Origin: an uncultured Candidatus Peribacteria bacterium
GTDB taxonomy: Bacteria; Patescibacteriota; Gracilibacteria; Peribacterales; Peribacteraceae
Assembly (NCBI GenBank): GCA_964553135.1
Contig: CAZKJL010000001.1
Coordinates: 563,946 to 627,945 of the forward strand
Reading direction: 5' to 3'
DNA length: 64,000 bases
Both the position numbers and the translations under genes were made by a program. Under the pieces are notes generated by a model, which saw only the letters and a list, made by a program, of their open reading frames with translations, ran no database searches and was not told where the DNA came from. Below, in pieces: positions 29,659-50,523 of the stretch (the stretch's first letter is position 1; each line of letters begins with the position of its first letter).

Positions 29659-29734
29659 GTCACGGTAGCTCAGTTGGTAGAGCATGGGACTCATAAGCCC
29701 AGGGTCGCCGGTTCAATCCCGGCCCGTGACACCA
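29659..29734 (+). tRNA. tRNA-Met (anticodon CAU, elongator-type; Ile2/lysidine type not excluded), CCA encoded
   Basis: Acceptor GTCACGG/CCGTGAC, D arm GCTC-AGTTGGTA-GAGC, anticodon loop CTCATAA, T arm GCCGG-TTCAATC-CCGGC, ACCA. Confidence 0.85.
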
Positions 29735-31413
29735 TACAGGTCGCTAATGTTATGACGGCTATCAGACTTCTCTGACTCAGGAATCATAAGCTCCAGAGTC
29801 ACGTCTGAGCCGTCAATTACTATGCGCTTCACAAGGTCATGAATGATGAGGCGTTTTGTTTCAAAATCCAGCTTCGCCAATGCCTTAGCGTACTTTTTTG
29901 CTATGTCCTTTGCGGCAATCAGACGCTCTCTCCGCTCCTCTGCATCCATCAGTTGAGACGCTATCGCTTCCAGGTCATCTGTGAGCTTAATTTTATCCTC
30001 TGTAATGCGCTTAGATTCTACCTCCAGTTCTCCTTCACCCTGATAGTCAAAACCCTTCTGATAGAGGTTCTTCACCCTCTGCCATTCTGCGGTTAATGCA
30101 TCAAACTCTTGCTGCTTCTCTGCTCTTTCCTGCTCAAGCTCGTATACATTCACTTTCTTTTTCTCTTCTTCCTCAATGCGCTTAATGAATACCTTGGGGT
30201 CAGATAACAACTGGGATACCTCCTGCCACACCCTTCCTTCAAGGATAGAACCCGAAATCTCTTTGTTATCACAAGGCGTAGGACTCTTACTCTTATTGGC
30301 TTTGCGACAACGATATTGCGGTAATTCGCCTATCTTTGTTTTCACGCCATCAATCGTTTTAATTTGAGGCTTCATGTAGCCCCCATAAGTAGACATGCAC
30401 CTGGCGCAATCCACTTTTCCAGAAAGCAGATATGTGTGCCTTCCCAGTTTTTGGGTGCGCTTGTTCTGTTCCAGTAGAGATTGTGCCTTCTTCCATATCT
30501 TTTTGCTGATGATCTGTGGACAAGGTATTGGAATCCAATCTTCCTCAGGATTCAGAACCTCCTTCATTTTTTTGGCTACAGCATCGTATTTCTTAGTCTT
30601 CTTTCCATAGTAATACAGGCCTGTATAGGCCTCATTCCTAAGGAGGCGGCCAACTGTTTTGTCGTGCCAGTAATTAGCTGGATTCACTTTGCGAATCTCC
30701 TTCTTGAGTTTCTTCTTTTTTCTGAGCTTATCCGCAACGCGGTCTGCCTGGGTTGGAATCTGTAAGGCATTCAATCGCTGCTGAATCTCGTAGGTTGTTT
30801 TTCTGTCTCTCACGAACCACTTAAATATCTTCTGCACGATCTTAGAAGTTTCAGGATTGATAGCGATTTTTTGGGAGTCAGGGTCTATGTCATAGCCATA
30901 TGAGTGCATCCCACCCACCCATTTCTTGTCTTTAGCAGCCTCAACTCTGCCTATGGCTGTGCGTTCCATAATTAAGTCCCTCTCCATCTCTGCAATGATT
31001 CCCAGGAGTCCTAGCATGAACTTTCCAAAGGTCGTTGTGGTGTTCACTTCCTGCTGAGACGTAGCGATGAAATCTATGTCTATATCCCTTAAATCCTCAA
31101 TAGCATTGAGCAGATAGCGCGTTTTGCGGAAGAATCTATCCAGCTTCCACACTAAGACCACATCAAACTCCTTCTTCTTCGCGTCCTCAAACAAGCGCGG
31201 TAACTCTGCTCTCTCGTGAATCTCAGACGCTCCTGAGAAGCCATCATCTATGTAGATATATTTCTCATTAAACGTATAAAGTTCGTCGTTTGCTGCCAGC
31301 CACTTCCGCATTTGTGATATCTGGGAGTCCTTTCCGTACTTCTCTCCTTGCTCAGTAGTACTCACACGAACATACATGCAAGCACGTCTCTTTGTGTTGT
31401 CTTCTTTCTTCAT
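29713..31413 (-). CDS. Large serine recombinase
   Basis: Resolvase catalytic domain (MYVRVSTTEQ, VLVWKLDRFFR), recombinase domain, zinc ribbon (CARC...CRKAN) and C-terminal coiled coil. The stop codon lies inside the tRNA-Met T-loop. Confidence 0.9.
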   Translation of the reverse strand: MKKEDNTKRRACMYVRVSTTEQGEKYGKDSQISQMRKWLAANDELYTFNEKYIYIDDGFSGASEIHERAELPRLFEDAKKKEFDVVLVWKLDRFFRKTRYLLNAIEDLRDIDIDFIATSQQEVNTTTTFGKFMLGLLGIIAEMERDLIMERTAIGRVEAAKDKKWVGGMHSYGYDIDPDSQKIAINPETSKIVQKIFKWFVRDRKTTYEIQQRLNALQIPTQADRVADKLRKKKKLKKEIRKVNPANYWHDKTVGRLLRNEAYTGLYYYGKKTKKYDAVAKKMKEVLNPEEDWIPIPCPQIISKKIWKKAQSLLEQNKRTQKLGRHTYLLSGKVDCARCMSTYGGYMKPQIKTIDGVKTKIGELPQYRCRKANKSKSPTPCDNKEISGSILEGRVWQEVSQLLSDPKVFIKRIEEEEKKKVNVYELEQERAEKQQEFDALTAEWQRVKNLYQKGFDYQGEGELEVESKRITEDKIKLTDDLEAIASQLMDAEERRERLIAAKDIAKKYAKALAKLDFETKRLIIHDLVKRIVIDGSDVTLELMIPESEKSDSRHNISDLYGVTGRD

Positions 31414-31653: not shown

Positions 31654-33441
31654 ATGTTGGGCATCTTCCGCGTACTCTTTGGCAAACAAACATCAGGCAA
31701 TTCCCTAGTTTCCCAGTCCCCAGCAAAGAGTAATTCAAAGGGAACTCCATTTATTGATATCACTAAGGCAAAAATAGTTGTGCTCCCCAGGCTGCCCACA
31801 GCCAATGAATATCAAAAAGAGGGCATCTCTCATCCTCAGGAATACTGGGAGAGCTACAACAAAGGACAATCGCTCTATGGCAGAGGATGGTACGAGAAAG
31901 CCAAGGTGGAGTTTCTAAAGATTTACGATAATGAGCATGGGAATGCGTACTTCAGCCATCTCCTGCGAACGTACAGGCAGGGCGCAGAACGGTTTATAGA
32001 GAAGAAGAAATACGAAGATGCTCTACGCGAATACACGGAAATGTTTATAAAATGCCCTAATACAACGAATACGGATGTAAGGAAGTACAATAAACTCATT
32101 GATGCGATGGGGGCAGATGTGAAGAAAAAGCAGCTTATTGAAGTGGAGAAAGAGGAACCTGAATTTGTCTGCGATGGAAAAGTGATTGCCTTCCTTTCGG
32201 AAGCGAAGAAGCCCAAAGGCTTTAAGATTGAATACGATAACGAACGGCTCTCCCAGTATGCCCTTCGCAACAAAAAGCAGACGCTCACACCGCTGCTTCC
32301 GTACATCGTAGTTGAAGGCAACACAGTGCAGTACGCGGATACGGTTGAGTTCCCAAAAACGAGCCGCAAGCTCTACAGAATAAAAACAATACCAACTCCC
32401 TCTACCCCCTTCATGTTCAGTACGGAGGACTTACAGATTTACCTCTCTGACTGGCAATTCAATGAGCTACAGCACTTGGATGCATCCAGGTACACATCAG
32501 AGAAATACCATCTTCGGTGCATTGATATGGCTGGCGATCTTTCCGCTTTTGTCTTCACCATCGTTGATGAATGCTACCTAGTGAATGAGAATTTTAAGGT
32601 ATTCGGCGTATGGAGAGTTCCCTACAAAATTGATACGCAAGATGCAAAATATAAGAGAGAAACAAGGAGCGGAAACAATGGCAATGCTCAGAATACTGAT
32701 GTGCGCGAGGCACTGAATACCTTGGGAATCTCCAAAGATCAGCCCACCACAGACGATGTGAAACAGGCTTTCAGGCAGTTAACGAAGCAATATCATCCTG
32801 ACAAATACAAAGGCGAGGATGCGGAAGAGCGCACGAAGGCGATCATTGGCGCGTATGAACTCATTAAGAATGCGGACTTGCAGGGTGTGAATGCAGCGGA
32901 CATGGAAGATGAGTACTGGATGGAGGTGACACACACCTCAACATTTAATGCACACGGCTTTGAATTCACACTGCAAATGGGAATGGTGGTAGACCCTTCA
33001 GACTGGATATATGGAACTGGAATGGCGAAGGATGGCTCTCGTATTTACCTGGGTTGTTACTCAGGAAAAGTGTATTCCATCAACACGGAGGGAGTTGCGG
33101 ATATGGTCTACGTTATCCCCAGCGCAGAGCCAATATCTGAGATAATGGAATGCGGCGAATACCTTCATATATCTACATACTCACAGGTCTACATTATTCA
33201 TATAGAAGAACAGCGATTCATTAAAGCCATTCAACTGCATGGAGAAGAAAACGGTGCATCAGGATACGTTAAATACTATGAGGATGGATTCGTTCATGTG
33301 CTGGGTGATGCAGTTACAATCCATGACTGCAAAGGCGAAAAGTTAGGTTCTGTGAGCTTCGCAAAGAGTCTAAAATCTATCTGCGTTGCAGACGGGAAAT
33401 TCGTCTTTGAAACAGCTAGCAAACTGTATTTGTTTGGATGA
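31654..33441 (+). CDS. J-domain (DnaJ-like) protein with TPR-like N-terminal region and beta-propeller-like C-terminal region
   Basis: Central J domain DDVKQAFRQLTKQYHPDKYKGEDAEERTKAIIGAYELIKN with the HPD motif. The C-terminal roughly 170 aa have repeated beta-strand units (GSRIYLGCYSGKVYSIN, YLHISTYSQVYIIH, GFVHVLGDAVTIHD, GKFVFETASKLYLF). Confidence 0.7.
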   Translation: MLGIFRVLFGKQTSGNSLVSQSPAKSNSKGTPFIDITKAKIVVLPRLPTANEYQKEGISHPQEYWESYNKGQSLYGRGWYEKAKVEFLKIYDNEHGNAYFSHLLRTYRQGAERFIEKKKYEDALREYTEMFIKCPNTTNTDVRKYNKLIDAMGADVKKKQLIEVEKEEPEFVCDGKVIAFLSEAKKPKGFKIEYDNERLSQYALRNKKQTLTPLLPYIVVEGNTVQYADTVEFPKTSRKLYRIKTIPTPSTPFMFSTEDLQIYLSDWQFNELQHLDASRYTSEKYHLRCIDMAGDLSAFVFTIVDECYLVNENFKVFGVWRVPYKIDTQDAKYKRETRSGNNGNAQNTDVREALNTLGISKDQPTTDDVKQAFRQLTKQYHPDKYKGEDAEERTKAIIGAYELIKNADLQGVNAADMEDEYWMEVTHTSTFNAHGFEFTLQMGMVVDPSDWIYGTGMAKDGSRIYLGCYSGKVYSINTEGVADMVYVIPSAEPISEIMECGEYLHISTYSQVYIIHIEEQRFIKAIQLHGEENGASGYVKYYEDGFVHVLGDAVTIHDCKGEKLGSVSFAKSLKSICVADGKFVFETASKLYLFG

Positions 33442-33447
33442 GATGTC

Positions 33448-34767
33448 TTATTGAATCTGAGCCTCTGGTGTCCCAGTAGGGAGGGTTTCGGTTGCCAGCT
33501 TCGGAGGAGCTATTAGCTCAGTGACCATCTCTGGTAATTCTGGAAGTTCAGGCAGAAGGTTGCCCATGTCTTTCACCTTTTCCAGTGAGCGCGTCACGCT
33601 CTTCTGTCCAAGCCATGACTTGCCCACAGCATCGTTCCACGACTTAGAGGCATACTCTAGCCCTTTGTGAACGCCAACGAGCCTTTGAACGAAGTTCTCC
33701 AAGCGTCTACCCAGTTCTTTCACTTCTACGGAAAGTGCCTGAGCTTGTGTTGCAATTCTGTGCTGCCGCCATGCGTCAGCAATGAGCCAAATGAGAGGCA
33801 TGAGCGTTGCAGGACTCGTTACAATGACTTTCTGTGCCGCACAGTCCTGTAGCAACTCCTGGTCACATTCAAGTGCTGCTCTCATAGCGGCCTCACTGGG
33901 AATGAAGATCACAACGTAAGGTACTGAATCAGGTACGAACTCTTTATATTCGCGTTTTGTTAAATCTTTCACGCGATCTCTGAGCTTCGTACAAAACTCT
34001 TTATGCAGTAGCTTGCGCTCTTCATCGGTCTTAGCGTTATCTGCCGCCAGATAACTCTCGTACAGGGAGGCCTTGGCATCAATGGCAAGGGAGCGGCTGC
34101 TATGAGGGAGTTTAATGATGCAGTCTGGACGCAAACGGCGTCCCTCATCATCCAGGGATGTTGTCTGAATTGTGTAATCCGTTCCTTCTCTCAGATCACT
34201 CATTTGCAAGATATTTCTCAGCACTAACTCTCCCCATCGTCCGCGTACTGCGCCGCTAGTCGTTAGAGCGGTTTTAAGATGCTGAGTCTCCTCTATCAGC
34301 TTCTGTTCCTGTGTGCTCAATCCCTCAATCTGTTTTTCTAGCTGCGCGTACTTCACTGTCCTATCTGTCTCAAACTGAGTGATCTTGTCATTCGCACTCT
34401 TTAGCTGATCTGTCAGACCCTTCACTATGGATTCAATGGCTTGTTTACTGAGTTCCATTTTTCCCTCTGCTGCCGTAGTGATCTGAGTGAGGTCTTTTTT
34501 GGCACTGGCCTCATACAGTTTAGCCTCCTGCTCTAAGACTGTGGATGCCACTGCTTTAAAAGTGGTCTCCAATTTCTTCTCTGTTAACTGCATATCCTGG
34601 ATACGCAGATCGTAGGCCGTCTTAAGGTTCGCGATCTCGCTTTGATGCTGTAGCTCCTTTTGTACCATCTGGCCTCTCAGGGTGGCTATCGCAGCGTTAC
34701 GCCAAAGAAACACACCTACGCCTCCCAGCAGTCCGCCTAGGCCAATGAATAGAAGGTTGGTGAGCAT
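33448..34767 (-). CDS. rmuC: DNA recombination protein RmuC
   Basis: N-terminal TM helix, long coiled coil, and RGRWGELVLRNIL...LRPDCIIKLP...LAIDAKASL, the RmuC nuclease-like core. Confidence 0.85.
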   Translation of the reverse strand: MLTNLLFIGLGGLLGGVGVFLWRNAAIATLRGQMVQKELQHQSEIANLKTAYDLRIQDMQLTEKKLETTFKAVASTVLEQEAKLYEASAKKDLTQITTAAEGKMELSKQAIESIVKGLTDQLKSANDKITQFETDRTVKYAQLEKQIEGLSTQEQKLIEETQHLKTALTTSGAVRGRWGELVLRNILQMSDLREGTDYTIQTTSLDDEGRRLRPDCIIKLPHSSRSLAIDAKASLYESYLAADNAKTDEERKLLHKEFCTKLRDRVKDLTKREYKEFVPDSVPYVVIFIPSEAAMRAALECDQELLQDCAAQKVIVTSPATLMPLIWLIADAWRQHRIATQAQALSVEVKELGRRLENFVQRLVGVHKGLEYASKSWNDAVGKSWLGQKSVTRSLEKVKDMGNLLPELPELPEMVTELIAPPKLATETLPTGTPEAQIQ

Positions 34768-35310: not shown

Positions 35311-36276
35311 GTGAAGTTTGGCTTCCGCACACCATCACTCAAAAAAAGATTCGCAGCCAGAACATCTGTGAAGCGATTCGTGCGGCACTCTATGGGATTG
35401 AAGGCTCCTAGAGGAATGGGGATGCTCACAAACCCCAAGAAAGCCCTCTACAACAAGGTCTACAGGAAGACGACTTTCGGCATTGAGGATGTACTAAAGA
35501 GCGGCAAACGCACTGCATCTAAAGCCTCTCATTCTTCCGCTCCTGTTTCCCTCAACTCTATGTCCAAGCCGCCAATGGGTGCTTCTCAGAAGAAGATTTT
35601 ATGGATTGGAATTATTGGAACAATCGTCCTGATCTTCACTGGAGTTGGCGTAGTACTCGCGCCTTTCTTCCTCATTGGAGTGGTCTACTACTGGAATAAA
35701 ACTCCTGAAGTCAGGATGAAGAAGGCACTGACGATGAGCAATTACCTCTATAAGAAAGGACAGATACAAGAATCTATTGATGCTCTTTTGCCTTTTAAGG
35801 ATGCCAAAAACTATGAGGTCTCTAGCCGCCTCGCACATCGGTACGGACAACTGGGAAACTATGCAGAGGCAGAGACGTATGGAAGTTTTTGCTACGAGCG
35901 GAACCCTCATGACCTGGAGAATTTATATGTGCATTCCATCACTCTCTTTAATTTGAAGAAGTACAAAGAGTCGCAAGCAGCACTCTCCATTCTCCCAGAT
36001 TCCGCGCAGACAGAACCCATATTCGCAAACATCATCGGTGCGAACTACAACGGCATGGGGCAGGAAGATATAGCTGTAGAAATTTATAAGAAGTGCCTTG
36101 GCAGAAAGCAGAACATTGATGGTGAAGAGATCAGCATAGCCATTAACCTGGCGAAGATTCTCATTGAGAAAAAGAAGAAGGCAGATGCCAAAAAGTTCCT
36201 TCTGAGAATCCTCGCAGTTAGCCCAATGCATGAGGAAGCAACGGAACTGTTGGCGAAGACAGAGAAAAACGATTAA
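35311..36276 (+). CDS. Membrane-anchored TPR-repeat protein with basic N-terminal motif
   Basis: GTG start. N-terminus KFGFRTPSLKKRFAARTSVKR...GMLTNPKKALYNKVYRKTTF, TM helix ILWIGIIGTIVLIFTGVGVVLAPFFLIGVVYY, then TPR-like repeats. Confidence 0.6.
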   Translation: MKFGFRTPSLKKRFAARTSVKRFVRHSMGLKAPRGMGMLTNPKKALYNKVYRKTTFGIEDVLKSGKRTASKASHSSAPVSLNSMSKPPMGASQKKILWIGIIGTIVLIFTGVGVVLAPFFLIGVVYYWNKTPEVRMKKALTMSNYLYKKGQIQESIDALLPFKDAKNYEVSSRLAHRYGQLGNYAEAETYGSFCYERNPHDLENLYVHSITLFNLKKYKESQAALSILPDSAQTEPIFANIIGANYNGMGQEDIAVEIYKKCLGRKQNIDGEEISIAINLAKILIEKKKKADAKKFLLRILAVSPMHEEATELLAKTEKND

Positions 36277-39200
36277 TCGCTTATACGAATCTTCTCCGTG
36301 TTCTTGCACTTAGGATATTTGCTACATCCAAAGAACACTCCATATCGTCCCTTCTTGGGCTTCATTGTGCCTCCACAGCCAGGTAGCGGACACTCGTAAT
36401 GCTGCAAGCTCGTGATATCTATGCTCTCAGTCTTCTGCTTCCGTAGGTTACGAGCATTCGTTTTTGCGCCGCATTCGCTGCATTCAAAATAGACACCGAA
36501 CTTCCCATTCTTCCAAACCGTCTCACCATTGCAATCATCACAGAGAGGATTTTCTTTCTCGTGAATGCTGATGCCCTTTCCTCCCGAAGGAGTACAAACG
36601 AGTTGGGCTATCTGGCTGCATGTCTTCTTCCCAGGGATTCTCAACATGCTTTCTGAGGAGTTTGTATGAGAGAGAATGTTGAGGGAGCCATGCCAGAGAA
36701 TGGAGCCATCAATCACGCAAATCTTTTCATGCATCTTGGAGCGCAGATCAACAGTTACGCCTGTATCTATAAGGGCTTGCACGGCAGGAGTGAGGCCATT
36801 AGCCATGATCTCCCCCAGTTCCTCAATGGGACGGAAAACAAGGCGTATCAACACTCCACGCCTCTGGGCATCCTTCAGGAGTTCTACCCACCTACTAAGG
36901 CCATTGAGCGTCACGAATGGTGAGAAGATCGTGATGGATTTCTCCGCCTTCTGGATGTCTTGGGTGAATGCAGGATAGAAACTGCCTTCATTGAAAGCCC
37001 CTGCACTATCCATATCCAGCTTGAGCTTTGTTTTCGTGAGACGGTCTAGAGCGTCATGCCAGTCCTGATCGCCAATGGGTAACAGTTCGCGCACATCCAG
37101 CGGAGAGCCGTGCTTCTCAAAGTATTTCAGGATGTTCAATACCAACATGCCTTCCTTGGCGGTTCTCCGTAGGAACTCAAAATTGGCCACGAGGATGATA
37201 TGTTCCTTGGCGCGGCTGAAAGCCACATTCAGCAGTCTTCCGCCTTCCTCCTCTCTCTGTGATGCTGAGAGGAACCGCCCCAAGCGCACACCCTCTGAGT
37301 CCGTGAGATCAACAATCATTGTCTCTTTCTCATTCCCTTGGAAACGGTGAACGGTAGAAGCAAATGTTGCTGGCCTTCCCAGCTTATCCTCTATGAGTGA
37401 AGCAATGAGCTTCGTTTGCGCCGCATACGGAGACACAATGCCTAGTGTTTTATTTTCCTCATCTGCCTGAGGTAAATATTTCTTTTTAGCGAAGAAAGAA
37501 ACGATGTTACGAATGAGGAGCGCATGGAACAGGTTGTAGCGCGAATACCCTCCCAGTTTCATGGAAGCCCACGGATGGAATGCGGACGTATCAACGTATA
37601 ACAAAGGCTCTTTGGAAAGGGGCATCTTGGAGACATTCTTCCCTACGCTCACATCTGGAATCAGAGGATGATCGTAGTAGAAATGTTCATTGATGCAGTC
37701 ACAGATGGCTTTCTTCATACGGAACTGAATCTGGAGCGCACAAAGGTACTCAGGAGGCTTCTTGGACTGCACTTTCTCAGGAATGCCAGCCATCTCAAAC
37801 ACGTCTTTCTTGAGCCATTCCAGAGCCTTTGGCTCATCAGACATGACAATGGGTGAAAGCTGTCTGAAGTCCCCAGCGATGACCACGGATTGCGTAGCAA
37901 GCCCAGAGGCGTAATACGTCATGGGAAGCATGACCATGGAGGCTTCATCCACGATCACCACATCAAACTCTCTATGCAGATGCGACTCTAAGAACGTCCT
38001 GTAGACGGTTGTAGCCAGGATGCGGCAGTTCTTGAGTACCTGTTCACGGACGGCTGCTAACTGGGTATCAATCTCCTTCACTTGGAGGTACAGATTCTCA
38101 ATCTGCTTCTCTGTAGTGGCAATGGAGGAAGGATACGATACAACGTTAGGATGCTCCTTGAGCTTCGCTTCAATATCCTTCGTCAGTGCCTCTAGCTCAT
38201 CTGCTTCCTTCCCTGCATTGGCAACAGCCTTATCAATCTCTGATGCTGCGTCCACTGAGGATTTCCGCATGATCTCCGCTTGGCTCATCTCTCGCATGAT
38301 CTTTTCTGGATGCAAACCCAGCACCATGCGCTTGAGGGAGCCAGCGTTCTTCGCTCGTGCCAACTTCTCCTCCAAGGAGTCCTTTTTAGTCTGATACTGA
38401 GATATCTTTGCCGCCAACCCAGAGCGTTTCTGCTGATGGGCTTGGAGGGTCTTTGCGGAGAATTCCATCTTCTTTTCCGCATCCTTCAGTGCCTGATGGA
38501 AGCGGATGGCTTCTTGCATCGGCTGTATCTGTCCCTCTAGGTGTGAGATTTCCAGTACGAGCTTCTGCCTTTCCCCCTGTAGTCCTTCACTCAGGCGTTC
38601 CACGATCTCATCAATGAGCACTTGTTTGCCATGCTTCTCAATCAGTTCCACCTTCATGGCTGGCCCCAAGCGGATGACTGAGCCGCGTTGATACTCCTCA
38701 TCTGTCACTAAGCGCTCAGCGACTTTTTCCAGAGCAGTATCCACGGCAATGTTCGTATTGGATACGAGTAGCACGGAAAGCCCTTTGCGATAGAAGCCTT
38801 CTACGACTCGTGCCAGCGTTGTGGTCTTCCCTGTTCCTGGCGGCCCCCAGACATAGGTAACTTCACTGCCAAGAGAACGGCGGATGATTCTCTGCTTCTC
38901 CTCATTCATGCCGCCAAGCAGCGTCTCATCTAGCTCAGCATCAGCAGAGGCTATATTTCCTTCTCCAATGACCTTCTCAGCGAGTCCAGCGTTAAAAGCT
39001 GCCTCTCCGCTCTGCACTTCACCCAGACGCTCCTTGAGGCGTTCTAGAAGGAACGAGTTATCAATGATGATTCGCGCACTGGAGATCGTGTCTCCAAGAT
39101 CAGCCTCCAATGCCACGATCAATACGCCCTCATTCGTAGAAACGATGATGCCTGGGATATCATCTTTCCCACAGGCAAGGCGTATGGGTGAATCATCTTT

Positions 39201-39374
39201 CAACTGCGTACCTTCAATATCTTCTGAGAGAGGAAAGCGATAGAGGGTGTTTGTCCCTTCAGTCTGTAGGCGTTCTCCTCCGCGCACAGTGATTTGTTGA
39301 GAGTTACCTTTCTTGCGAATGGCGGCAACCTCTAGGCCCAAAGCCTCAATCATGTGCGTTAGATTGTCCGCCAT
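36273..39374 (-). CDS. SF1 (Upf1/DNA2-like, COG1112-type) helicase fused to a PLD/HKD nuclease domain and two topoisomerase-type zinc ribbons; Mokosh type II-like
   Basis: Walker A GPPGTGKT (aa 177-184), coiled-coil insertion, motif II VVIVDEASMV, FRMKK and VHRFQGNEKE helicase motifs, a single HKD motif MHEKICVIDGSILWHGSLN (about aa 881-899), then CDDC...CSEC and CPLPGC...GCSKYPKC ribbons. Confidence 0.8.
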   Translation of the reverse strand: MADNLTHMIEALGLEVAAIRKKGNSQQITVRGGERLQTEGTNTLYRFPLSEDIEGTQLKDDSPIRLACGKDDIPGIIVSTNEGVLIVALEADLGDTISSARIIIDNSFLLERLKERLGEVQSGEAAFNAGLAEKVIGEGNIASADAELDETLLGGMNEEKQRIIRRSLGSEVTYVWGPPGTGKTTTLARVVEGFYRKGLSVLLVSNTNIAVDTALEKVAERLVTDEEYQRGSVIRLGPAMKVELIEKHGKQVLIDEIVERLSEGLQGERQKLVLEISHLEGQIQPMQEAIRFHQALKDAEKKMEFSAKTLQAHQQKRSGLAAKISQYQTKKDSLEEKLARAKNAGSLKRMVLGLHPEKIMREMSQAEIMRKSSVDAASEIDKAVANAGKEADELEALTKDIEAKLKEHPNVVSYPSSIATTEKQIENLYLQVKEIDTQLAAVREQVLKNCRILATTVYRTFLESHLHREFDVVIVDEASMVMLPMTYYASGLATQSVVIAGDFRQLSPIVMSDEPKALEWLKKDVFEMAGIPEKVQSKKPPEYLCALQIQFRMKKAICDCINEHFYYDHPLIPDVSVGKNVSKMPLSKEPLLYVDTSAFHPWASMKLGGYSRYNLFHALLIRNIVSFFAKKKYLPQADEENKTLGIVSPYAAQTKLIASLIEDKLGRPATFASTVHRFQGNEKETMIVDLTDSEGVRLGRFLSASQREEEGGRLLNVAFSRAKEHIILVANFEFLRRTAKEGMLVLNILKYFEKHGSPLDVRELLPIGDQDWHDALDRLTKTKLKLDMDSAGAFNEGSFYPAFTQDIQKAEKSITIFSPFVTLNGLSRWVELLKDAQRRGVLIRLVFRPIEELGEIMANGLTPAVQALIDTGVTVDLRSKMHEKICVIDGSILWHGSLNILSHTNSSESMLRIPGKKTCSQIAQLVCTPSGGKGISIHEKENPLCDDCNGETVWKNGKFGVYFECSECGAKTNARNLRKQKTESIDITSLQHYECPLPGCGGTMKPKKGRYGVFFGCSKYPKCKNTEKIRISD

Positions 39375-39381
39375 AGTTAAT

Positions 39382-41487
39382 TTAGTAGTTGTAATCCTTC
39401 ATGCAGTAGCTGCCGTTAAGTGAATAGCCAGCGTTACAAAGGCATCTCTCATCCTCAACGCTGAAATATCCACCAGTCCCACAATACGATTTACGAACAC
39501 AACTGCCGTCCTTTGGGTAGTAATCGCTATCGCAGATGCAGCCACCAGTCTGCTGATTGAAGGTTCCGCCGTAGCAAGAAGGCTCTCTCACACAGCTTCC
39601 ATTCTGCTTGTAGTAGCCCTCATCACAATCACATGCGCCCGTCTGTCTGTTGTAGGTTCCGCTATAGCCACAAGCAAGGTATTCACTGATGCATGTGCCG
39701 CCCTGTGATACATATCCAGTGTTGCAGTAGCACTTCCCAGCATCCTCATCAAAACTGCTGTTATATGGACAATCCACTTCTTCGTAGCATTTTCCATCTT
39801 TAACGTAGTAACCGTAATCACATTCACACTGTTTTGCCGTGTAATTAAACGTGCTGTTTGAGACGCAGTTTGGAACCTTTACACATGTATTGTTATTGGC
39901 GTAGTAGCCAGTATTACAAACACAGCTTGCCTCTGCGTAGCTATAGAAAGCATTGGAGCCAAATTCTGAGCAATCATGCGTTGGAGTGGGTGCAGGAGGT
40001 GGAGTGCTAATGGTCGGAGTGGGAGGCGTTGTTTCACGATAGGTTGGCTGTTGCTGTGGAGTGCCAGACGTTCCGCTATTGAAATCAGAGGGGTCAAGAT
40101 AAGCCACACCTCTATGGCTCTCTGGGATGTTGCCCAAGAACGTCTCAACGCTGCTTGCTCCAATGGCAAACTTTACGCCATCAATGCTAAGGGTATTTAC
40201 GCCCACTACTTCACTTGCCGTATTCAATAGCGGCCCTCCAGAGTTACCATGAGTGATCTCCGCATCTGTTTGTATGAACTCCATCCCAGAATTAGAGGTG
40301 CGAACGGCACTAATAATTCCCTTTGTGATGCTCTCTGTGAAAGACTGAGGGCTACCGACTGCAAACACAGTCTGCCCCTGCCTTGCTGTTGATTGCAGGG
40401 ACAACGATGGAAATGGACTGGGATAATCCACAACAAAATCACCATTTTGGAGTACGAGATTCGTAACAGCCAATGCAGCAAGATCATTTGTTCCTCCACC
40501 TGTTGCAATTACCTGTGCAATACGCGCACGTTTCTGATCATCAACGATAATTACAGGAGGGCCAGAGCCAAGTGCATAGGTTCTATCTTCATAGGCAACA
40601 GGCTCAACAACGTGGAAGTTTGTAATGAGTGTGTAGTCATCAATGAAAAAGGCTGTTCCTTGCGAAACCGTATCATCGCCGCCTGGAACGATGACTGTAA
40701 CTACAGATGGAAGTGCTTTAGTAAGAACTTTAGAGGCATCGCCATCCTGTCTCCTAATTCGCTCTAGCTCCGCTTCAGCCTCATCCGTTTTCCCTCTCAA
40801 TTCATCCTGAACTTGCTGAGCTTCCCTGAGCAATTGGCTCACGCTGTTCTCAGGAGTGGCAATGCTGACTTTGATTTCTTCTTGTTTCTCCAGGGTGAAT
40901 TTTTGGGCTTCTGCAAGTTCAGAATCAGTCATACTCTTTTTGAGTTCCTCAAGAGCTATATCAGCTTTTTCATGCCCTTGAGCCTTAGCTAGACTCCACC
41001 AAACATAGGCCTTTGATCTACTCTCAGGTGCGCCCTTCCCTGACTCAAACACAATTCCCAAGTAGTACTGAGCCTCAGCATTTCCTTGATGCCCAGCCTT
41101 AGCGAACCATTCTTTCGCAGTGGGGAAATCCTGAGCAACTGCCTCTCCTCTGTAGTAGAGCAAACCCAGAATCAATTGAGCGGTTACGTTGCCCTGTTCT
41201 GCTGAGCGGCTTAGCCATTGAACAGATGTTGCAGCGTCTTTAGGTACTTCATTTTTCCCTACGAAAAATAATCCTGCCAAAGCCAATTGTGACTCCGCAT
41301 TCCCATCATTGGCGGATTTACGGAGAGCGACCATGTCTGTACTAGCCTCTGCCTTAGGGAAAGGGAGATCAGTTGTGCGATCTGCGAATGCACGAACTGA
41401 AAGAATTGCTAGAACGACAATAGAAAGACAGACTATGCTTCCCCCTATGACTAAGCCAATTTTAGAAGTATCAGGCTTGAGCGGCAT
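39382..41487 (-). CDS. Membrane-anchored Sel1-repeat / trypsin-like serine protease / Cys-rich-repeat protein
   Basis: N-terminal TM helix. Sel1 repeats (GNAESQLALAGLF, GNVTAQLILGLLYY, GNAEAQYYLGIVF). Coiled coil. Protease triad contexts TNFHVV, NDLAALAV, GNSGGPL. Pro-rich linker. Six repeats of about 32 aa with four cysteines each (C-x-C-x2-GYY-x4-6-C). Confidence 0.75.
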   Translation of the reverse strand: MPLKPDTSKIGLVIGGSIVCLSIVVLAILSVRAFADRTTDLPFPKAEASTDMVALRKSANDGNAESQLALAGLFFVGKNEVPKDAATSVQWLSRSAEQGNVTAQLILGLLYYRGEAVAQDFPTAKEWFAKAGHQGNAEAQYYLGIVFESGKGAPESRSKAYVWWSLAKAQGHEKADIALEELKKSMTDSELAEAQKFTLEKQEEIKVSIATPENSVSQLLREAQQVQDELRGKTDEAEAELERIRRQDGDASKVLTKALPSVVTVIVPGGDDTVSQGTAFFIDDYTLITNFHVVEPVAYEDRTYALGSGPPVIIVDDQKRARIAQVIATGGGTNDLAALAVTNLVLQNGDFVVDYPSPFPSLSLQSTARQGQTVFAVGSPQSFTESITKGIISAVRTSNSGMEFIQTDAEITHGNSGGPLLNTASEVVGVNTLSIDGVKFAIGASSVETFLGNIPESHRGVAYLDPSDFNSGTSGTPQQQPTYRETTPPTPTISTPPPAPTPTHDCSEFGSNAFYSYAEASCVCNTGYYANNNTCVKVPNCVSNSTFNYTAKQCECDYGYYVKDGKCYEEVDCPYNSSFDEDAGKCYCNTGYVSQGGTCISEYLACGYSGTYNRQTGACDCDEGYYKQNGSCVREPSCYGGTFNQQTGGCICDSDYYPKDGSCVRKSYCGTGGYFSVEDERCLCNAGYSLNGSYCMKDYNY

Positions 41488-42616
41488 GGTGTGAGTTTTG
41501 GAAATTTTGATATGCGAACGTGCCGCGCACTCCGTTTATTAAACCAAAAAGGAATACTATTGCGATTCCAATACCCGCTCCGCTGATCTGTCCTTCTGAA
41601 AACTGGAATGTCTTTTCAAGGATGAAGAGTACCAATCCAGCCACCGCTGCCGTACGAGAATAGAACTGCATACCTAATCCAATGACAGCAAAGAGAAGGG
41701 CATCCAACATTGCCCACGCATCAATACCACCTATGGATTGATCTGTAGCCAACGCAAACAGTGCAACTCCAGCAGTGAGAACCGCGATGACATACGCAAC
41801 TCCATAACCTTGCGCCACTGCCTTCTTCGCGCTCTCTATTGAATCAATTGTTAGGAACCACTGATTAGATGTTTTCTTCTTAGATGCAGTTACTATAGGA
41901 GTGGAAGCTGCCTTGGCAGATTGTTTTTTAGGAATGTCCATTTTCGTAGTAAAACCTTCCTGTTTCTTCCCCAAAAAATTGAGTTCCTTGGGGCCAAGGA
42001 TGCCAACACTGTATCCTGCTTTCTTCACCATTTTTATAGCATCTGCATACGCACAGAAGAACGCGATAATGCCAATGATGCCACCTAGAAGCAGTGAGCC
42101 TATAGCAGCGTATTTCCATGCGGATTTCCAGACCAATATCTCAATGGCAATCATGCAGTAAACGACTCCCAAGAATATAAGACCAGCAATCCCTGCTACA
42201 AAATCACTGTTAAGAATTGCAGCAAGAATAAGGCCAAGAATTCCACCCAGGAAAAAGACATTGCACCACTTCAGATGAACAGCGACCTTATCGGCTTTAC
42301 CGCTCTCTGATGGAACTGTTTTAACCAAAGCTGCTTTGGGTGGAGTGTGCGCTTGCGCTTTATGACTTCCAAAGCCCACATAAAGAACACAGTGGTATAA
42401 GCCCACTGCTACCAGATACACAACGAGGGGAAAAATGATGATTGCAGTCTTATCGTCCTCCTCCAGGGTCAATAAAATACCCAACAGCAAAGCCAATCCC
42501 GTGCCTCCTAAAATGAAAACTTCAGCGAGTCTGTTCCACCATTTTTCTTGTACTTCAAGCCTACGCGGAAACAGGGGCAGTTTCATAGCTTCAAAGATTA
42601 CAGGAGATGTAAGCAA
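41471..42616 (-). CDS. Multi-pass membrane protein (hypothetical)
   Basis: About 9-10 hydrophobic helices with a Lys-rich cytoplasmic linker. 17-nt overlap with the downstream protease gene. Confidence 0.6.
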   Translation of the reverse strand: MLTSPVIFEAMKLPLFPRRLEVQEKWWNRLAEVFILGGTGLALLLGILLTLEEDDKTAIIIFPLVVYLVAVGLYHCVLYVGFGSHKAQAHTPPKAALVKTVPSESGKADKVAVHLKWCNVFFLGGILGLILAAILNSDFVAGIAGLIFLGVVYCMIAIEILVWKSAWKYAAIGSLLLGGIIGIIAFFCAYADAIKMVKKAGYSVGILGPKELNFLGKKQEGFTTKMDIPKKQSAKAASTPIVTASKKKTSNQWFLTIDSIESAKKAVAQGYGVAYVIAVLTAGVALFALATDQSIGGIDAWAMLDALLFAVIGLGMQFYSRTAAVAGLVLFILEKTFQFSEGQISGAGIGIAIVFLFGLINGVRGTFAYQNFQNSHHAAQA

Positions 42617-47504: not shown

Positions 47505-47830
47505 GTTATCTATTTCTTATTCATCGTGCGGACGCTCTTCTCTCTTCTGCCGTTGTTGCTACTACATGTGTCCAACTGGGTCAGTGTTTTGGCATCCGTG
47601 AGAGCAAAGTGATTGCAACACTGAGACGGTTTCAGTTCCGTGCGCGGCTTTGGCTTTCTAGAGCGAAGGTTGATGGCGGCACTGAGATAGCTTTCAAGAA
47701 TGACCAGCTTTGGCTTACCCAAGCCAGAGTTAGTCTTTGGCGAGAGATAGGCTCTTGGGATTGTGTGAACAGCATATCTGGAAGCCGCATCTGGGAAGCA
47801 TCGCACGTCCTTTCATCGCCAGTCCTATGA
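47501..47830 (+). CDS. Hypothetical protein, possible HTH
   Basis: Translationally coupled on both sides by ATGA overlaps. The LGQCFGIRESKVIATLRRF segment is HTH-like. Confidence 0.4.
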   Translation: MSYLFLIHRADALLSSAVVATTCVQLGQCFGIRESKVIATLRRFQFRARLWLSRAKVDGGTEIAFKNDQLWLTQARVSLWREIGSWDCVNSISGSRIWEASHVLSSPVL

Positions 47831-49059
47831 GTGACTATTCAGAACAGAACAGGCTTAACGCAGAGCGCATCTACAACACGCTCTCAGCCATGAAGTGTAA
47901 TCCTAGGAGAGCAGGAGGGTTCCAATGCTCGTCTCATTGCCCCTTCCATGAAGACGATAAGCCCTCTCTATCACTGGATATGCGGCAAGGAGTGTTCTAC
48001 TGCCACTCATGCCAGTCAGGTGGCACGGTGTGGGACTTTGAAGCCCTGCTTGGCAGCACGTCATACAGTTCCTTTGTGAAGGGGGGCGACCCTAGGAAGG
48101 GAAAGCAGCGCAAGAATGATAACCAAAGACTCGTGAGGGCTTTACAGCGGTACAACGAGATCGAGCCGCTGCCAGCGGACAAGGCAGAAGTTCTTAGATG
48201 CCATGATGATACAATCAGGTATTGGCATGACTGCTTATTGTCTTCAAAGGAGGCGCGGCGCATGGTCACTGGCAAATATGAAGAGGCGTTCGTCCGCAGC
48301 TACTACCACTGGCAGACGAAAGAGAGGATAACCACGCCTCATAACTATGTTAGCCCCAGATTCACCTTGGAGACCGTGCGCCAATTCAGGATAGGGTATG
48401 CCCCTAAGTCGTCTATAGAGCTAACCAATATGCTGAGAGCGAAGTACTCAGAAGAAGTCATTATAGGAACAGGACTCGTGAGAAGACACGGCGGCTCAGG
48501 ACTGATTGCCTCCTTTGCTGGGCGCATTATTTATCCATACCTTCTCCAAGGTAAGCCTTGCTATGCGATAGCCAGGATTACACCCGATTCGCCAACGAAC
48601 CTTTCAGACTGCAAATACCTGAAACAAAAAACGCGAGATAGAAAATACAGCTTCCCTCTGCGTAATCCTCCTCTTTTCAATCAGGATGCCATATGGACAC
48701 ACCAAAAAATTCTGATTACGGAGGGGGTTACAGATGCGATCAAGGCATGTGAGGCAGGAGTGTCAGCTATATCACCCGTCACTATCGCCTTCATAAACAA
48801 GCATCTTGATCTCATAGCTCACATGCTATTGGGAAAAGATGTGGTCATCTGCAATGACAATGAAGAGAACGGCGCAGGAGAGAAGGGCATGAGACACATG
48901 GAAGAGCAACTTAAAAAGCGAGGTGTGGACGTGCGTTGCATGACCTTGCCCAGAAAGGCAGGGCAACCGAAGGTGGATGTATGTTCATTCATCAATGACC
49001 AAGGAGCGGAAGCCTTTCTAGCCGAAATAAAGTCTCAGACTGGCATCGTTTTCCCTTAG
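47827..49059 (+). CDS. DNA primase (CHC2 zinc finger plus TOPRIM, DnaG-like)
   Basis: CPFHEDDKPSLSL...FYCHSCQSGG zinc finger. TOPRIM motifs ILITEGVTDAIKA and VVICNDNEENGAGEKG. Confidence 0.8.
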   Translation: MSDYSEQNRLNAERIYNTLSAMKCNPRRAGGFQCSSHCPFHEDDKPSLSLDMRQGVFYCHSCQSGGTVWDFEALLGSTSYSSFVKGGDPRKGKQRKNDNQRLVRALQRYNEIEPLPADKAEVLRCHDDTIRYWHDCLLSSKEARRMVTGKYEEAFVRSYYHWQTKERITTPHNYVSPRFTLETVRQFRIGYAPKSSIELTNMLRAKYSEEVIIGTGLVRRHGGSGLIASFAGRIIYPYLLQGKPCYAIARITPDSPTNLSDCKYLKQKTRDRKYSFPLRNPPLFNQDAIWTHQKILITEGVTDAIKACEAGVSAISPVTIAFINKHLDLIAHMLLGKDVVICNDNEENGAGEKGMRHMEEQLKKRGVDVRCMTLPRKAGQPKVDVCSFINDQGAEAFLAEIKSQTGIVFP

Positions 49060-49393: not shown

Positions 49394-50323
49394 ATGGAAA
49401 TCACCACCTCACGTTCACTCACGGCAGTCCCAAAACAGATTCACTCCGCCTACATCCAGGCATTTATTAAGAACCAGAACACCTTCAACACGCGAAGGGA
49501 TTACAAGCAGGAGGTGAACCTGTTCTATCGCTCTGTGGGGAAAAACATGGAGCAAGTAACTCTGCATGACCTGATCTCATACAAAGAACAGTTAGAGAGC
49601 AGAGGCCTTAAGCCAGCAAGCATTGCCAAGAAGCTGACCGTGCTGAGGAGGCTCTTCACATTTTTCTATGAGCAGGGAGTGCTGCCCACCAACCCAAGTG
49701 CTGGCTTGAAGCTCCCTAAAGTAAAAAATGAAACCACGCGCACGATTCTCTCTCTCGCTGAGTGTAACCGTCTGCTTTCCAGCATTGGCGCATCCACAGT
49801 CATGGGCCTAAGAGACCGAGCGATCTTGGCACTCCTCTGCATTAATGCGCTCAGGATTTGCGAGATATCTAGAGCTAATGTGGGAGATATAATCCAGAAC
49901 GATGGATGTGTAGCGCTTAGGGTGCATGGAAAGGGCGGACGCGAGGATGAGACGCGCCTGAGAGAAGACGTGCTGAATGCCATCAATGCCTATCTGAATG
50001 CGAGAGGAGAAGTGAAGGCTGATGAGCCATTATTCGTAGGCTCAACGCATAGAAAGGGTGAAAGAATCTCAACGCGAACCATCCAGCACTTCGTGAAGAA
50101 ATACATGAAGAAGATAGGTATTAACAGGCCTACGGTGGTAACGCACTCGCTGCGCCATTCAGCAATTTCCGCTCTCATAGAAGCAGGAGTGTCCCTGTTG
50201 GATACACAAACCTTCGCACGGCACTCCTCAAGCGTTGTAACCCAGCGGTATATCCATCAGAAAGACAAGATGAAGAACCATGCGGTACTCAGAAATCCTA
50301 TAACAATGCTGCCCCTGGAATAG
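49394..50323 (+). CDS. Tyrosine recombinase/integrase (XerC/D-like)
   Basis: N-terminal SAM-like domain. Catalytic contexts ALRICEIS (R), HGKGGRE, HSLRHSAIS (HxxR), and RHSSSVVTQRYIH (catalytic Y). Confidence 0.9.
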   Translation: MEITTSRSLTAVPKQIHSAYIQAFIKNQNTFNTRRDYKQEVNLFYRSVGKNMEQVTLHDLISYKEQLESRGLKPASIAKKLTVLRRLFTFFYEQGVLPTNPSAGLKLPKVKNETTRTILSLAECNRLLSSIGASTVMGLRDRAILALLCINALRICEISRANVGDIIQNDGCVALRVHGKGGREDETRLREDVLNAINAYLNARGEVKADEPLFVGSTHRKGERISTRTIQHFVKKYMKKIGINRPTVVTHSLRHSAISALIEAGVSLLDTQTFARHSSSVVTQRYIHQKDKMKNHAVLRNPITMLPLE

Positions 50324-50523
50324 CACCTGAAACCATCTGTAATTGAATGCGTTCTTGCTTCGTTAGTTCCCTTACATAAGCCACTTTCCAGTTAATCAGT
50401 ATCAGGTAATAATATTGGCGACCCGTGCTACCATTCAACTTCGCTTCGCGAAGTCTCATGGCAAGCCATCGAGGTTCAACTTGTCCTGAACGGAGTGAAG
50501 GATCCCGGCCCGTGATACCGCTC

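Follow-up and report, generated by a model that had tools for sequence, protein, structure and literature searches.

A single-gene helicase–PLD family with two topoisomerase-type zinc ribbons, found on a Peribacteria integrative island and predicted to be a sister family to Mokosh type II

We describe a 1033-aa protein encoded in a 64,000-nt stretch of DNA from an uncultured Candidatus Peribacteria bacterium (assembly GCA_964553135.1, contig CAZKJL010000001.1, positions 563,946 to 627,945). This whole stretch is referred to as the window, and all nucleotide positions are given within it. The protein joins an Upf1-like helicase to a PLD nuclease domain in one chain, as does the single-gene (type II) form of the Mokosh defence system. 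It is a distinct variant of this known type, bearing three conserved additions: an N-terminal barrel module, an SMC-like coiled-coil arm and a double topoisomerase-type zinc ribbon. More than 1000 homologues share this layout over their full length, and the gene is cargo of a ~21-kb integrative island located at a tRNA-Met.

Domain organisation of the protein

The minus-strand open reading frame (ORF) at 36273-39374 begins with an ATG and encodes 1033 aa, as seen from the ORF list and its translation. Its parts are as follows, with the basis of each assignment in brackets.

36273-39374, minus strand: whole gene, helicase–PLD–double zinc ribbon; stop codon at 36273-36275 (Pfam, PADLOC and NCBIfam matches)
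39000-39374, minus strand: N-terminal module, residues 1-125; helix, six-strand beta-barrel, helix (AlphaFold2 secondary structure)
38589-38906, minus strand: RecA1 part 1, residues 157-262, with Walker A and motif Ia VSNTNIAVD (Pfam AAA_11/AAA_30; invariant columns)
38028-38588, minus strand: coiled-coil arm inside RecA1, residues 263-449 (AlphaFold2 helices; weak SMC matches)
37770-38027, minus strand: RecA1 part 2, residues 450-535, with motifs II and III (Pfam; family alignment; motif positions)
37170-37769, minus strand: RecA2, residues 536-735, with motifs V and VI (Pfam AAA_12; invariant columns; alignment with RecA2 of the Mokosh type II protein MkoC)
37005-37169, minus strand: helical linker, residues 736-790, with a low-confidence loop at ~773-786 (AlphaFold2 model)
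36594-37004, minus strand: single-HKD PLD nuclease domain, residues 791-927 (Pfam PLDc_2; invariant motif; Foldseek)
36450-36551, minus strand: zinc ribbon 1, residues 942-975, with C945, C948, C965, C968 and GKFGVYFEC (invariant Cys; alignment with domain D7 of E. coli topoisomerase I; NF004966)
36285-36401, minus strand: zinc ribbon 2, residues 992-1030, with C995, C1000, C1017, C1023 and GRYGVFFGCSKYPKC (Pfam Zn_ribbon_Top1)

Conservation was assessed on alignment A1, which comprises 30 family sequences and also served as the basis of the AlphaFold2 model. Both the alignment and the full-length model lack Met1, and their numbering is thus the protein residue minus 1. The model is confident (mean predicted local distance difference test score, pLDDT, 82.5) and places in order a helix–barrel–helix, a split RecA1, RecA2, a helical linker with one disordered loop, an alpha/beta PLD domain and two beta-ribbons. 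The whole layout is conserved in the 30-sequence alignment. Given the E-values reported below, together with full-length conservation in more than 1000 homologues, this arrangement is not due to chance.

An initial annotation, made from the DNA letters, had read this gene as a single polypeptide with a beta-rich N-terminus, an SF1/Upf1-like helicase carrying a coiled-coil insertion of ~180 aa, a single Nuc/Zucchini-like HKD motif and two C4 ribbons of topoisomerase type. Each of these parts has been recovered here. The ORF is present on the minus strand and all of the quoted motifs could be located in it, profile searches returned Pfam AAA_11/AAA_12, PLDc_2 and Zn_ribbon_Top1, and the AlphaFold2 model, which had been suggested as a check, bears out both the beta-rich N-terminus (helix 2-20, six-strand barrel ~24-104, helix 107-121) and the insertion.

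The helicase core consists of two RecA-like domains in which the superfamily 1 (SF1) motifs I, Ia, II, III, V and VI are all intact. These include the Walker A motif GPPGTGKT at 177-184 (K183), motif II VVIVDEAS at 472-479 (D476/E477), motif III GDFRQL at 501-506, motif V TVHRFQGNE at 674-682 and motif VI NVAFSRA at 716-722. Pfam AAA_11 matched residues 156-512 (6.8e-30) and AAA_12 residues 538-731 (5.1e-23). The best structural match found by Foldseek was SETX (1.5e-28), with IGHMBP2, DNA2, UPF1, ZNFX1 and Aquarius also recovered (E-values of 1e-28 to 1e-22 for SETX, IGHMBP2, DNA2 and UPF1). A profile search of Protein Data Bank (PDB) sequences returned DNA2 (9.4e-30), IGHMBP2 (3.4e-28) and UPF1 (8e-25), and in the same search the ribbons matched E. 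coli topoisomerase I (EcTopoI, 4RUL) and the PLD domain matched Zucchini/PLD6. Pfam, Foldseek and PDB-sequence matches therefore agree, and by fold and motifs the protein is an SF1B Upf1-like helicase.

The Foldseek alignments to IGHMBP2, DNA2 and UPF1 span ~790-840 columns and take in nearly the entire 614-aa IGHMBP2 target, with a TM-score of 0.74 (normalised to IGHMBP2). Owing to this near-complete structural alignment, the N-terminal helix–barrel–helix, which is strongly conserved in the family (MIxALGLEVAAIRKKGG...), is probably the stalk and 1B barrel of Upf1-like helicases. The helicase fold and motifs are thus held in common with DNA2, IGHMBP2, UPF1, SETX/Sen1 and ZNFX1, and the stalk and barrel probably correspond to their domain 1B. 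To our knowledge, all characterised Upf1-like helicases translocate 5′ to 3′, and family membership suggests that this protein would do the same on single-stranded nucleic acid. DNA2 is, moreover, a helicase–nuclease fusion, as is the protein described here. However, the nuclease of DNA2 is an N-terminal PD-(D/E)xK domain with an Fe-S cluster, whereas here it is a C-terminal PLD domain. A DNA2-type N-terminus was not found in the 125-aa helix/barrel module, which has neither a Pfam nuclease match nor a cysteine cluster.

Where Upf1-like helicases have a small 1C insertion, RecA1 of this protein is interrupted by a 187-aa arm, predicted as three long helices (262-342, 355-404 and 410-448, model numbering) and weakly matching the SMC models TIGR02169 and TIGR02168 at 250-448 (NCBIfam). 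The topoisomerase-type ribbons likewise set it apart from these helicases. Segment hidden Markov models (HMMs) found the arm in most family members. Within the alignment its length is conserved and its sequence variable, and the turn at ~343-355 is conserved, with the consensus MGxVRRFFSGLNPERL in which R349 and L354 are invariant. In one homologue (P0120) an extra CxxC...CxxC insertion (CISCQTQNRV...VCGRCGKPL) is found at A1 columns ~455-493, between arm helices 2 and 3, faintly recalling the zinc hooks of SMC/Rad50-type arms.

The PLD domain was detected by Pfam PLDc_2 at 805-924 (2.4e-12), and both Pfam and AlphaFold2 place one such domain in each chain. Its motif MHEKICVIDGSILWHGSLN, at 881-899, reads H882-x-K884-x4-D889-x6-G896-S897-x-N899, which is an exact HxK(x4)D(x6)GSxN, and every residue of the HKD motif is invariant across the 30 sequences. 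We modelled residues 786-1033 separately (pLDDT 88.4), and with this model Foldseek returned Salmonella Nuc (1BYR) at an E-value of 2.9e-8, a TM-score of 0.72 and a root-mean-square deviation of 2.7 Å. Single-HKD nucleases were the best matches, and besides Nuc the Zucchini proteins of mouse and fly, NucT of H. pylori and the exonucleases PLD3/PLD4, which act on single-stranded DNA (ssDNA), were recovered. Fold and complete motif are thus common to this domain and to Nuc, NucT and Zucchini/PLD6, but the latter are small free-standing homodimers whereas here a motor and ribbons are joined to the PLD domain in the same chain. DNA is the substrate of Nuc, NucT and PLD3/4, whilst Zucchini is an ssRNA nuclease of the piRNA pathway.

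For the ribbons, all eight cysteines could be located, and Pfam, NCBIfam and the alignments with EcTopoI agree on their type. Ribbon 2 was called by Pfam Zn_ribbon_Top1 (PF01396) at 998-1029 (5.1e-11, 42.6 bits against a cutoff of 32), and GRYGVFFGCSKYPKC lies at 1009-1023. Ribbon 1 was not called by Pfam alone; it is covered by the NCBIfam model NF004966 (topoisomerase I/SWI fusion, 941-1027), and the family profile aligns it with the 4-Cys domain D7 of 4RUL (chain residues 713 onward). AlphaFold2 predicts beta-ribbons for both, that of ribbon 1 at 950-972. In the alignment the four cysteines of ribbon 1, whose GKFGVYFEC lies at 957-965, never vary. Ribbon 2 shows at least 90% conservation of its cysteines and of Y1020; F1014 is invariant and F963 conserved. 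The GVFFGCSKY of ribbon 2 aligns with GVFLGCSGY of EcTopoI domain D5, making F1014 and Y1020 the equivalents of F616 and Y622, which in 4RUL stack on ssDNA bases (PMC4678816). The EcTopoI ribbons bind ssDNA without sequence specificity (PMC4678816). Judged by these alignments, the two tandem ribbons are of the topoisomerase I type and appear to keep the aromatics that stack on ssDNA in the E. coli enzyme. They share with the 4-Cys ribbons of bacterial topoisomerase I (PF01396; also found in YrdD) both the G-x-[FY]-G-x-[FY]-x-x-C signature and the stacking aromatics. They differ in being attached to a helicase–nuclease rather than a topoisomerase, and in being two, with a linker that is variable and often basic.

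Comparison with Mokosh and CoCoNuT

Mokosh is defined by a COG1112 RNA-helicase domain together with a PLD nuclease; type I consists of two genes, with a serine/threonine kinase domain in MkoA, whilst in type II a single gene encodes an N-terminal helicase and a C-terminal PLD, and mutating either the helicase ATP site or the PLD site abolishes defence (Millman preprint, 10.1101/2022.05.11.491447). E. coli yjhR has been treated as a fused Mokosh by Cury et al. A 2025 preprint describes E. coli Mokosh II as a ~132-138 kDa monomer in solution which, in one panel, was protective against an ssDNA phage only. In our protein the ATP-binding (GPPGTGKT, DEAS) and PLD (H882/K884/D889) sites are both intact, and they are invariant in the family.

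The best PADLOC match was to MkoA (PDLC03920; 4.8e-61, 205 bits) over residues 139-755, that is, the helicase only. MkoC followed at 4.4e-40 and 135.7 bits, its best stretch pairing residues 597-909 with model positions 813-1112 of 1136, and MkoB gave a weak match to the PLD region (1.5e-10). The helicase core of MkoA in type I is therefore the best match, but type I has two genes and a kinase in MkoA whereas the present gene is a single one, encodes no kinase and has no MkoB-like neighbour. Type II offers a parallel in layout. MkoC likewise combines, in a single chain, a COG1112/Upf1-like SF1 helicase and a downstream single-HKD PLD domain, Walker A and motif II are separated by a large insertion in both proteins, the RecA2–linker–PLD segments are collinear and detectably homologous, and both are often found in variable or defence regions.

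The initial annotation had gone further and matched the helicase–PLD core to the published Mokosh type II architecture. The single chain with helicase then PLD stands, but the match does not extend over the length of MkoC. The comparators were two intact MkoC proteins, one of 1172 aa encoded on a P. syringae plasmid and one of 1162 aa from Arsenophonus. Their scores were 1373 and 1387 bits, and the matches cover positions 1-1135 of the 1136 in the model. Our protein and two homologues (P0037 and P0047) scored ~136 bits over roughly positions 777-1112 only, a tenfold difference. BLASTP against MkoC gave one collinear alignment of 317 aa from RecA2 to PLD (23% identity, E=1e-5), plus short motif matches. 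Segment HMMs for the N-terminal domain, coiled coil, linker and ribbons had no match in MkoC. MkoC proteins are ~1140-1240 aa, have another N-terminal region of ~260 aa and end right after the PLD, ~30-45 residues past the HKD motif. Moreover, the named organisms carrying MkoC relatives are mostly Proteobacteria, in contrast to the multi-phylum distribution of the present family.

The ribbons had been described as two extra ones on a Mokosh II protein, outside its published description as far as the annotator was aware. The latter holds. PF01396 is present in 0/120 full-length MkoC relatives (45-93% identity, 1140-1240 aa), and ribbons are lacking from the two intact MkoC proteins (Pfam), from the K-12 yjhR remnant and from 120 YjhR-like matches, the last being matches to a 338-aa YjhR fragment that are all shorter than 600 aa and include no full-length comparator. 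The word "extra", however, does not fit, nor does the suggestion that ribbons might be a clade-specific addition, since PF01396 is carried by 119/120 of the best homologues of our protein. It is this contrast, 119/120 against 0/120, that marks the ribbons as an ancestral hallmark of a distinct large family rather than an addition to MkoC. We therefore consider it very unlikely that the protein is a true MkoC orthologue that gained two C-terminal ribbons in one clade. The order of helicase and PLD in one chain, the PADLOC MkoC match and the collinear 23%-identity alignment would all be expected of an orthologue; a score of ~136 bits, drawn from about a quarter to a third of the model, would not, nor would the higher score of the MkoA model through the helicase only, the want of an MkoC counterpart for the N-terminal domain, coiled coil and linker, or the presence of ribbons in both length classes of the family (see below). 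Sequence comparison thus points to a sister family to MkoC, with a common helicase-to-PLD design that is parallel without orthology.

In E. coli the yjhR locus adjoins topAI-yjhQ, and the Mokosh II gene is truncated or broken by an insertion sequence (IS) in 3/3 strains (K-12 MG1655, Ecol_542 and AVS0456). In K-12 (L003, 10016-11032) only the last 338 yjhR codons are left.

A second comparison is with CoCoNuT type III-C, a predicted defence system with the Upf1-like helicase CnuH and the PLD effector CnuE (PMC11090510). Upf1-like helicase, PLD nuclease domains and coiled coils are combined there as here. CoCoNuTs are, however, multi-gene systems around McrBC-like CnuB/CnuC, and CnuE is a separate protein with two PLD domains, whereas ours is a single gene with one PLD. 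No McrB/McrC-like match was obtained in scans of the neighbours in the window, which are a membrane protein, a Sel1-trypsin protein, a TPR protein and RmuC, and no partner is conserved across 22 loci. Membership of CoCoNuT was therefore rejected.

Size, spread and variants of the family

At E<=1e-10, a search of 5.8 billion proteins returned upwards of 1242 homologues, of which the best 120 are 1013-1093 aa long and collinear over 94-100% of our protein, with 44-50% identity apart from three close relatives. With a profile of the PLD plus ribbons, 346 clusters (50% identity) were found at E<=1e-30 among 1.84 billion representatives. The family spans Acidobacteriota, Planctomycetota, Chloroflexota, Bacillota, Actinomycetota and other phyla, where its members are named "AAA domain-containing protein" or "topoisomerase-like DNA binding C4 zinc finger protein". 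It is thus already abundant in databases under uninformative names, and what is new is its recognition rather than the sequence itself.

According to segment HMMs, nearly all representatives of at least 900 aa have the order N-terminal barrel, RecA1a, coiled coil, RecA1b, RecA2, PLD and ribbon(s). A second length class of ~1150-1330 aa (representatives P0303-P0412; loci L011, L013 and L014) carries an extra ~100-300 aa ahead of the barrel module. Ribbon number drops to one or zero in a few members, and the PLD is missing from some distant relatives that retain the N-terminal domain and helicase. Examples are two Armatimonadota loci without PLD (L022/L023), a Wallbacteria locus with a ribbon but no PLD (L026), and three members with PLD but no ribbon (P0366, P0408 and L016). 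The C-terminal effectors may thus form a modular set on a common N-terminal domain and helicase core.

Neighbourhoods of the homologues

Genome contigs were scanned for the family, yielding at least 23 loci; neighbours were compared across 22 full-length loci. In Inmirania thermothiophila (P0037, L030) a cluster of BrxC-like, SLFN-AlbA, N6-methylase and SNF2 genes lies directly downstream of the homologue, with UvrB near. Desulfosoma caldarium (P0107, L031) has DUF499, DUF1156-GIY-YIG, AAA_15-DUF4276 and RmuC near. At L033-36, SIR2-HerA is directly upstream, and a type IIG-like methylase and SNF2 are also present. DpnII and IS elements are found at L037, an integrase and a BrnT toxin at L038, an integrase and a large AAA_21 ATPase at L029, and a TrwC relaxase at L011. 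Closer homologues are thus often in regions that look defensive or mobile, whilst the neighbours of more distant ones are mixed. The 22 full-length loci share no conserved partner gene, and such variable partners fit a single-gene system.

Proposed function

On balance we favour the view that this protein is a stand-alone helicase–nuclease which acts on ssDNA and restricts phages or other mobile elements on behalf of the host or of its carrier island. Its resemblance to a proven defence protein would support this, the best PADLOC matches being MkoA and MkoC and the RecA2–linker–PLD segment being collinear with that of MkoC. In such a scheme the ribbons and helicase channel would capture single-stranded nucleic acid, the ribbons favouring ssDNA; candidate targets are replication or rolling-circle intermediates, R-loops, and phage or plasmid ssDNA entering the cell. 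The motor would move 5′ to 3′ along the strand. Cleavage would require two HKD half-sites, one per chain, as in the Nuc and Zucchini dimers, and the nuclease would therefore need dimerisation, becoming active only once a second molecule joins the first on the substrate. Pairing may occur via PLD–PLD contact or via the coiled-coil arm, whose conserved turn is a candidate contact. A more ambitious proposal, to which we attach limited confidence, is that the family constitutes a widespread single-gene immune system separate from Mokosh, in which the ribbons would sense ssDNA exposed as mobile elements invade or replicate, and HKD pairing, perhaps via the SMC-like arm, would let the Upf1-like motor license the PLD by substrate-induced dimerisation.

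Several observations weigh against a defence role. We infer that role from genomic context, which is not uniform; the substrate (DNA or RNA), polarity, dimerisation and nuclease activity are all predicted. One homologue (P0042) sits among thrS-infC-rplT-pheST and other housekeeping genes. When 113 flanking ORFs from 14 further species genomes were pooled, PADLOC matches were sparse and most Pfam matches were to metabolism or translation. We consequently rejected the claim of a uniform "defence island", whilst noting that the pool includes a relaxase, ArdC and an integrase. The envelope genes upstream of the helicase gene in the window are uninformative on its function. Moreover, the family was absent from the phage collection and had no full-length copy in the plasmid collection, and in the literature searched we found neither a paper describing the family nor an experiment on any member.

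The main rival to a defence role is an accessory enzyme of DNA repair or of replication intermediates, DNA2-like or Sen1-like, that removes flaps, R-loops and ssDNA at stalled forks. We regard this as unlikely. In its favour, DNA2 is the closest solved helicase by sequence, topoisomerase I uses such ribbons to hold ssDNA (PMC4678816), RmuC is near in the window and at L031, UvrB is near P0037 and Lhr near L016, and several loci lie among housekeeping genes. However, the gene in the window resides in a low-GC integrative island, neighbours are not conserved, BREX-like, SIR2-HerA or restriction genes are directly adjacent in several genomes, and close relatives are scattered over very different phyla, as accessory genes that move horizontally typically are. 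A further role, in the life cycle of the island itself, would have the protein process replication or transfer intermediates together with the island's primase and recombinases. The same island does encode a DnaG-like primase and two recombinases, and a TrwC relaxase is near the L011 homologue. Nevertheless, the closest relative (L029) is alone in having any of the island genes, other homologues are in unrelated contexts without primase or recombinase, and envelope genes and opposite-strand genes of unknown role lie between the helicase gene and the primase. This explanation we consider extremely improbable.

RNA targeting differs from our favoured reading in substrate only; here phage transcripts would be threaded through the helicase and cut by the PLD as an RNase. 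Such targeting has already been hypothesised for Mokosh and the piRNA pair MOV10L1/Zucchini, the best structural matches of the helicase (Upf1, IGHMBP2, SETX and ZNFX1) act on RNA, and Zucchini is among the best PLD matches. Yet the Upf1-like helicases DNA2 and IGHMBP2 act on ssDNA too, and the C-terminal modules are of the ssDNA-binding topoisomerase I type with the stacking aromatics kept. Furthermore, Nuc, NucT and PLD3/4 are DNA-cutting enzymes, and E. coli Mokosh II was protective only against an ssDNA phage. We thus judge an RNA substrate improbable, and return to an ssDNA-directed defence protein as the reading we prefer.

Mokosh is among the commoner of the recently discovered defence systems and its kinship, as a prokaryotic system, with the piRNA helicase/nuclease pair has been discussed. 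A sister family with ribbons and an arm offers a natural experiment on whether DNA or RNA is read and on how a single-HKD nuclease is kept off, and the ribbons make the question of DNA versus RNA directly testable for Mokosh-like systems. A best match to MkoA alone makes no PADLOC system, and current annotation may therefore overlook the family. In that case it would be undercounted in defence inventories of Acidobacteriota, Planctomycetota, Chloroflexota and other environmental phyla. Should it instead be a true repair enzyme, it would be a new bacterial DNA2-like helicase–nuclease.

The integrative island

The G+C content is 46-49% from ~29.7 to 52 kb, compared with 55-60% in the flanks. The island itself extends over ~21 kb (29659-50515), with tRNA-Met (29659-29734) at its left edge. 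A 14-nt repeat of the 3′ end of the tRNA, ATCCCGGCCCGTGA, is found at 29716-29729 and again at 50502-50515, and 4/5 of the following bases match (xACC). For the two regions compared, ~0.007 such 14-nt repeats are expected by chance. The helicase gene comes last in a run of three genes with the same orientation, and its neighbours on the island are listed below; the island also encodes DUF4352 proteins.

29713-31413, minus strand: large serine recombinase, left end of the island
31654-33441, plus strand: 595-aa protein, a central DnaJ (J) domain being its sole recognisable part
33448-34767, minus strand: RmuC-family protein (PADLOC RTasRmuC, 3.5e-48), ~1.5 kb from the helicase gene
35311-36276, plus strand: 321-aa TPR protein, convergent, its 3′ end overlapping the stop of the helicase gene by 4 nt
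39382-41487, minus strand: 701-aa Sel1-trypsin envelope protein, directly upstream of the helicase gene
41471-42616, minus strand: 381-aa multi-pass membrane protein, upstream and co-oriented
47737-49059: DnaG-like primase
49394-50323: tyrosine integrase, right end of the island

Ten island proteins were scanned against PHROGs; only integrases and the primase were matched, with no virion family among them, and a prophage origin is thus not supported. The RmuC at the Desulfosoma locus (L031, 1602-3008) is 33% identical to that of the island, which may be coincidence or a loose association.

The 701-aa protein comprises an N-terminal membrane anchor, Sel1 repeats, a trypsin domain, a Pro/Thr-rich linker and C-terminal Cys-rich CxC..GYY repeats. 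Its gene adjoins the helicase gene only in the closest relative (L029), in which the helicase is 88% and the trypsin protein 73.5% identical. This protein and the 381-aa protein were rejected as functional partners, given their membrane anchor or multiple transmembrane segments and their recurrence in that relative only. In a metagenome-assembled genome of Pelagibacteraceae (L010), a weak trypsin match lies 2 kb downstream of the homologue.

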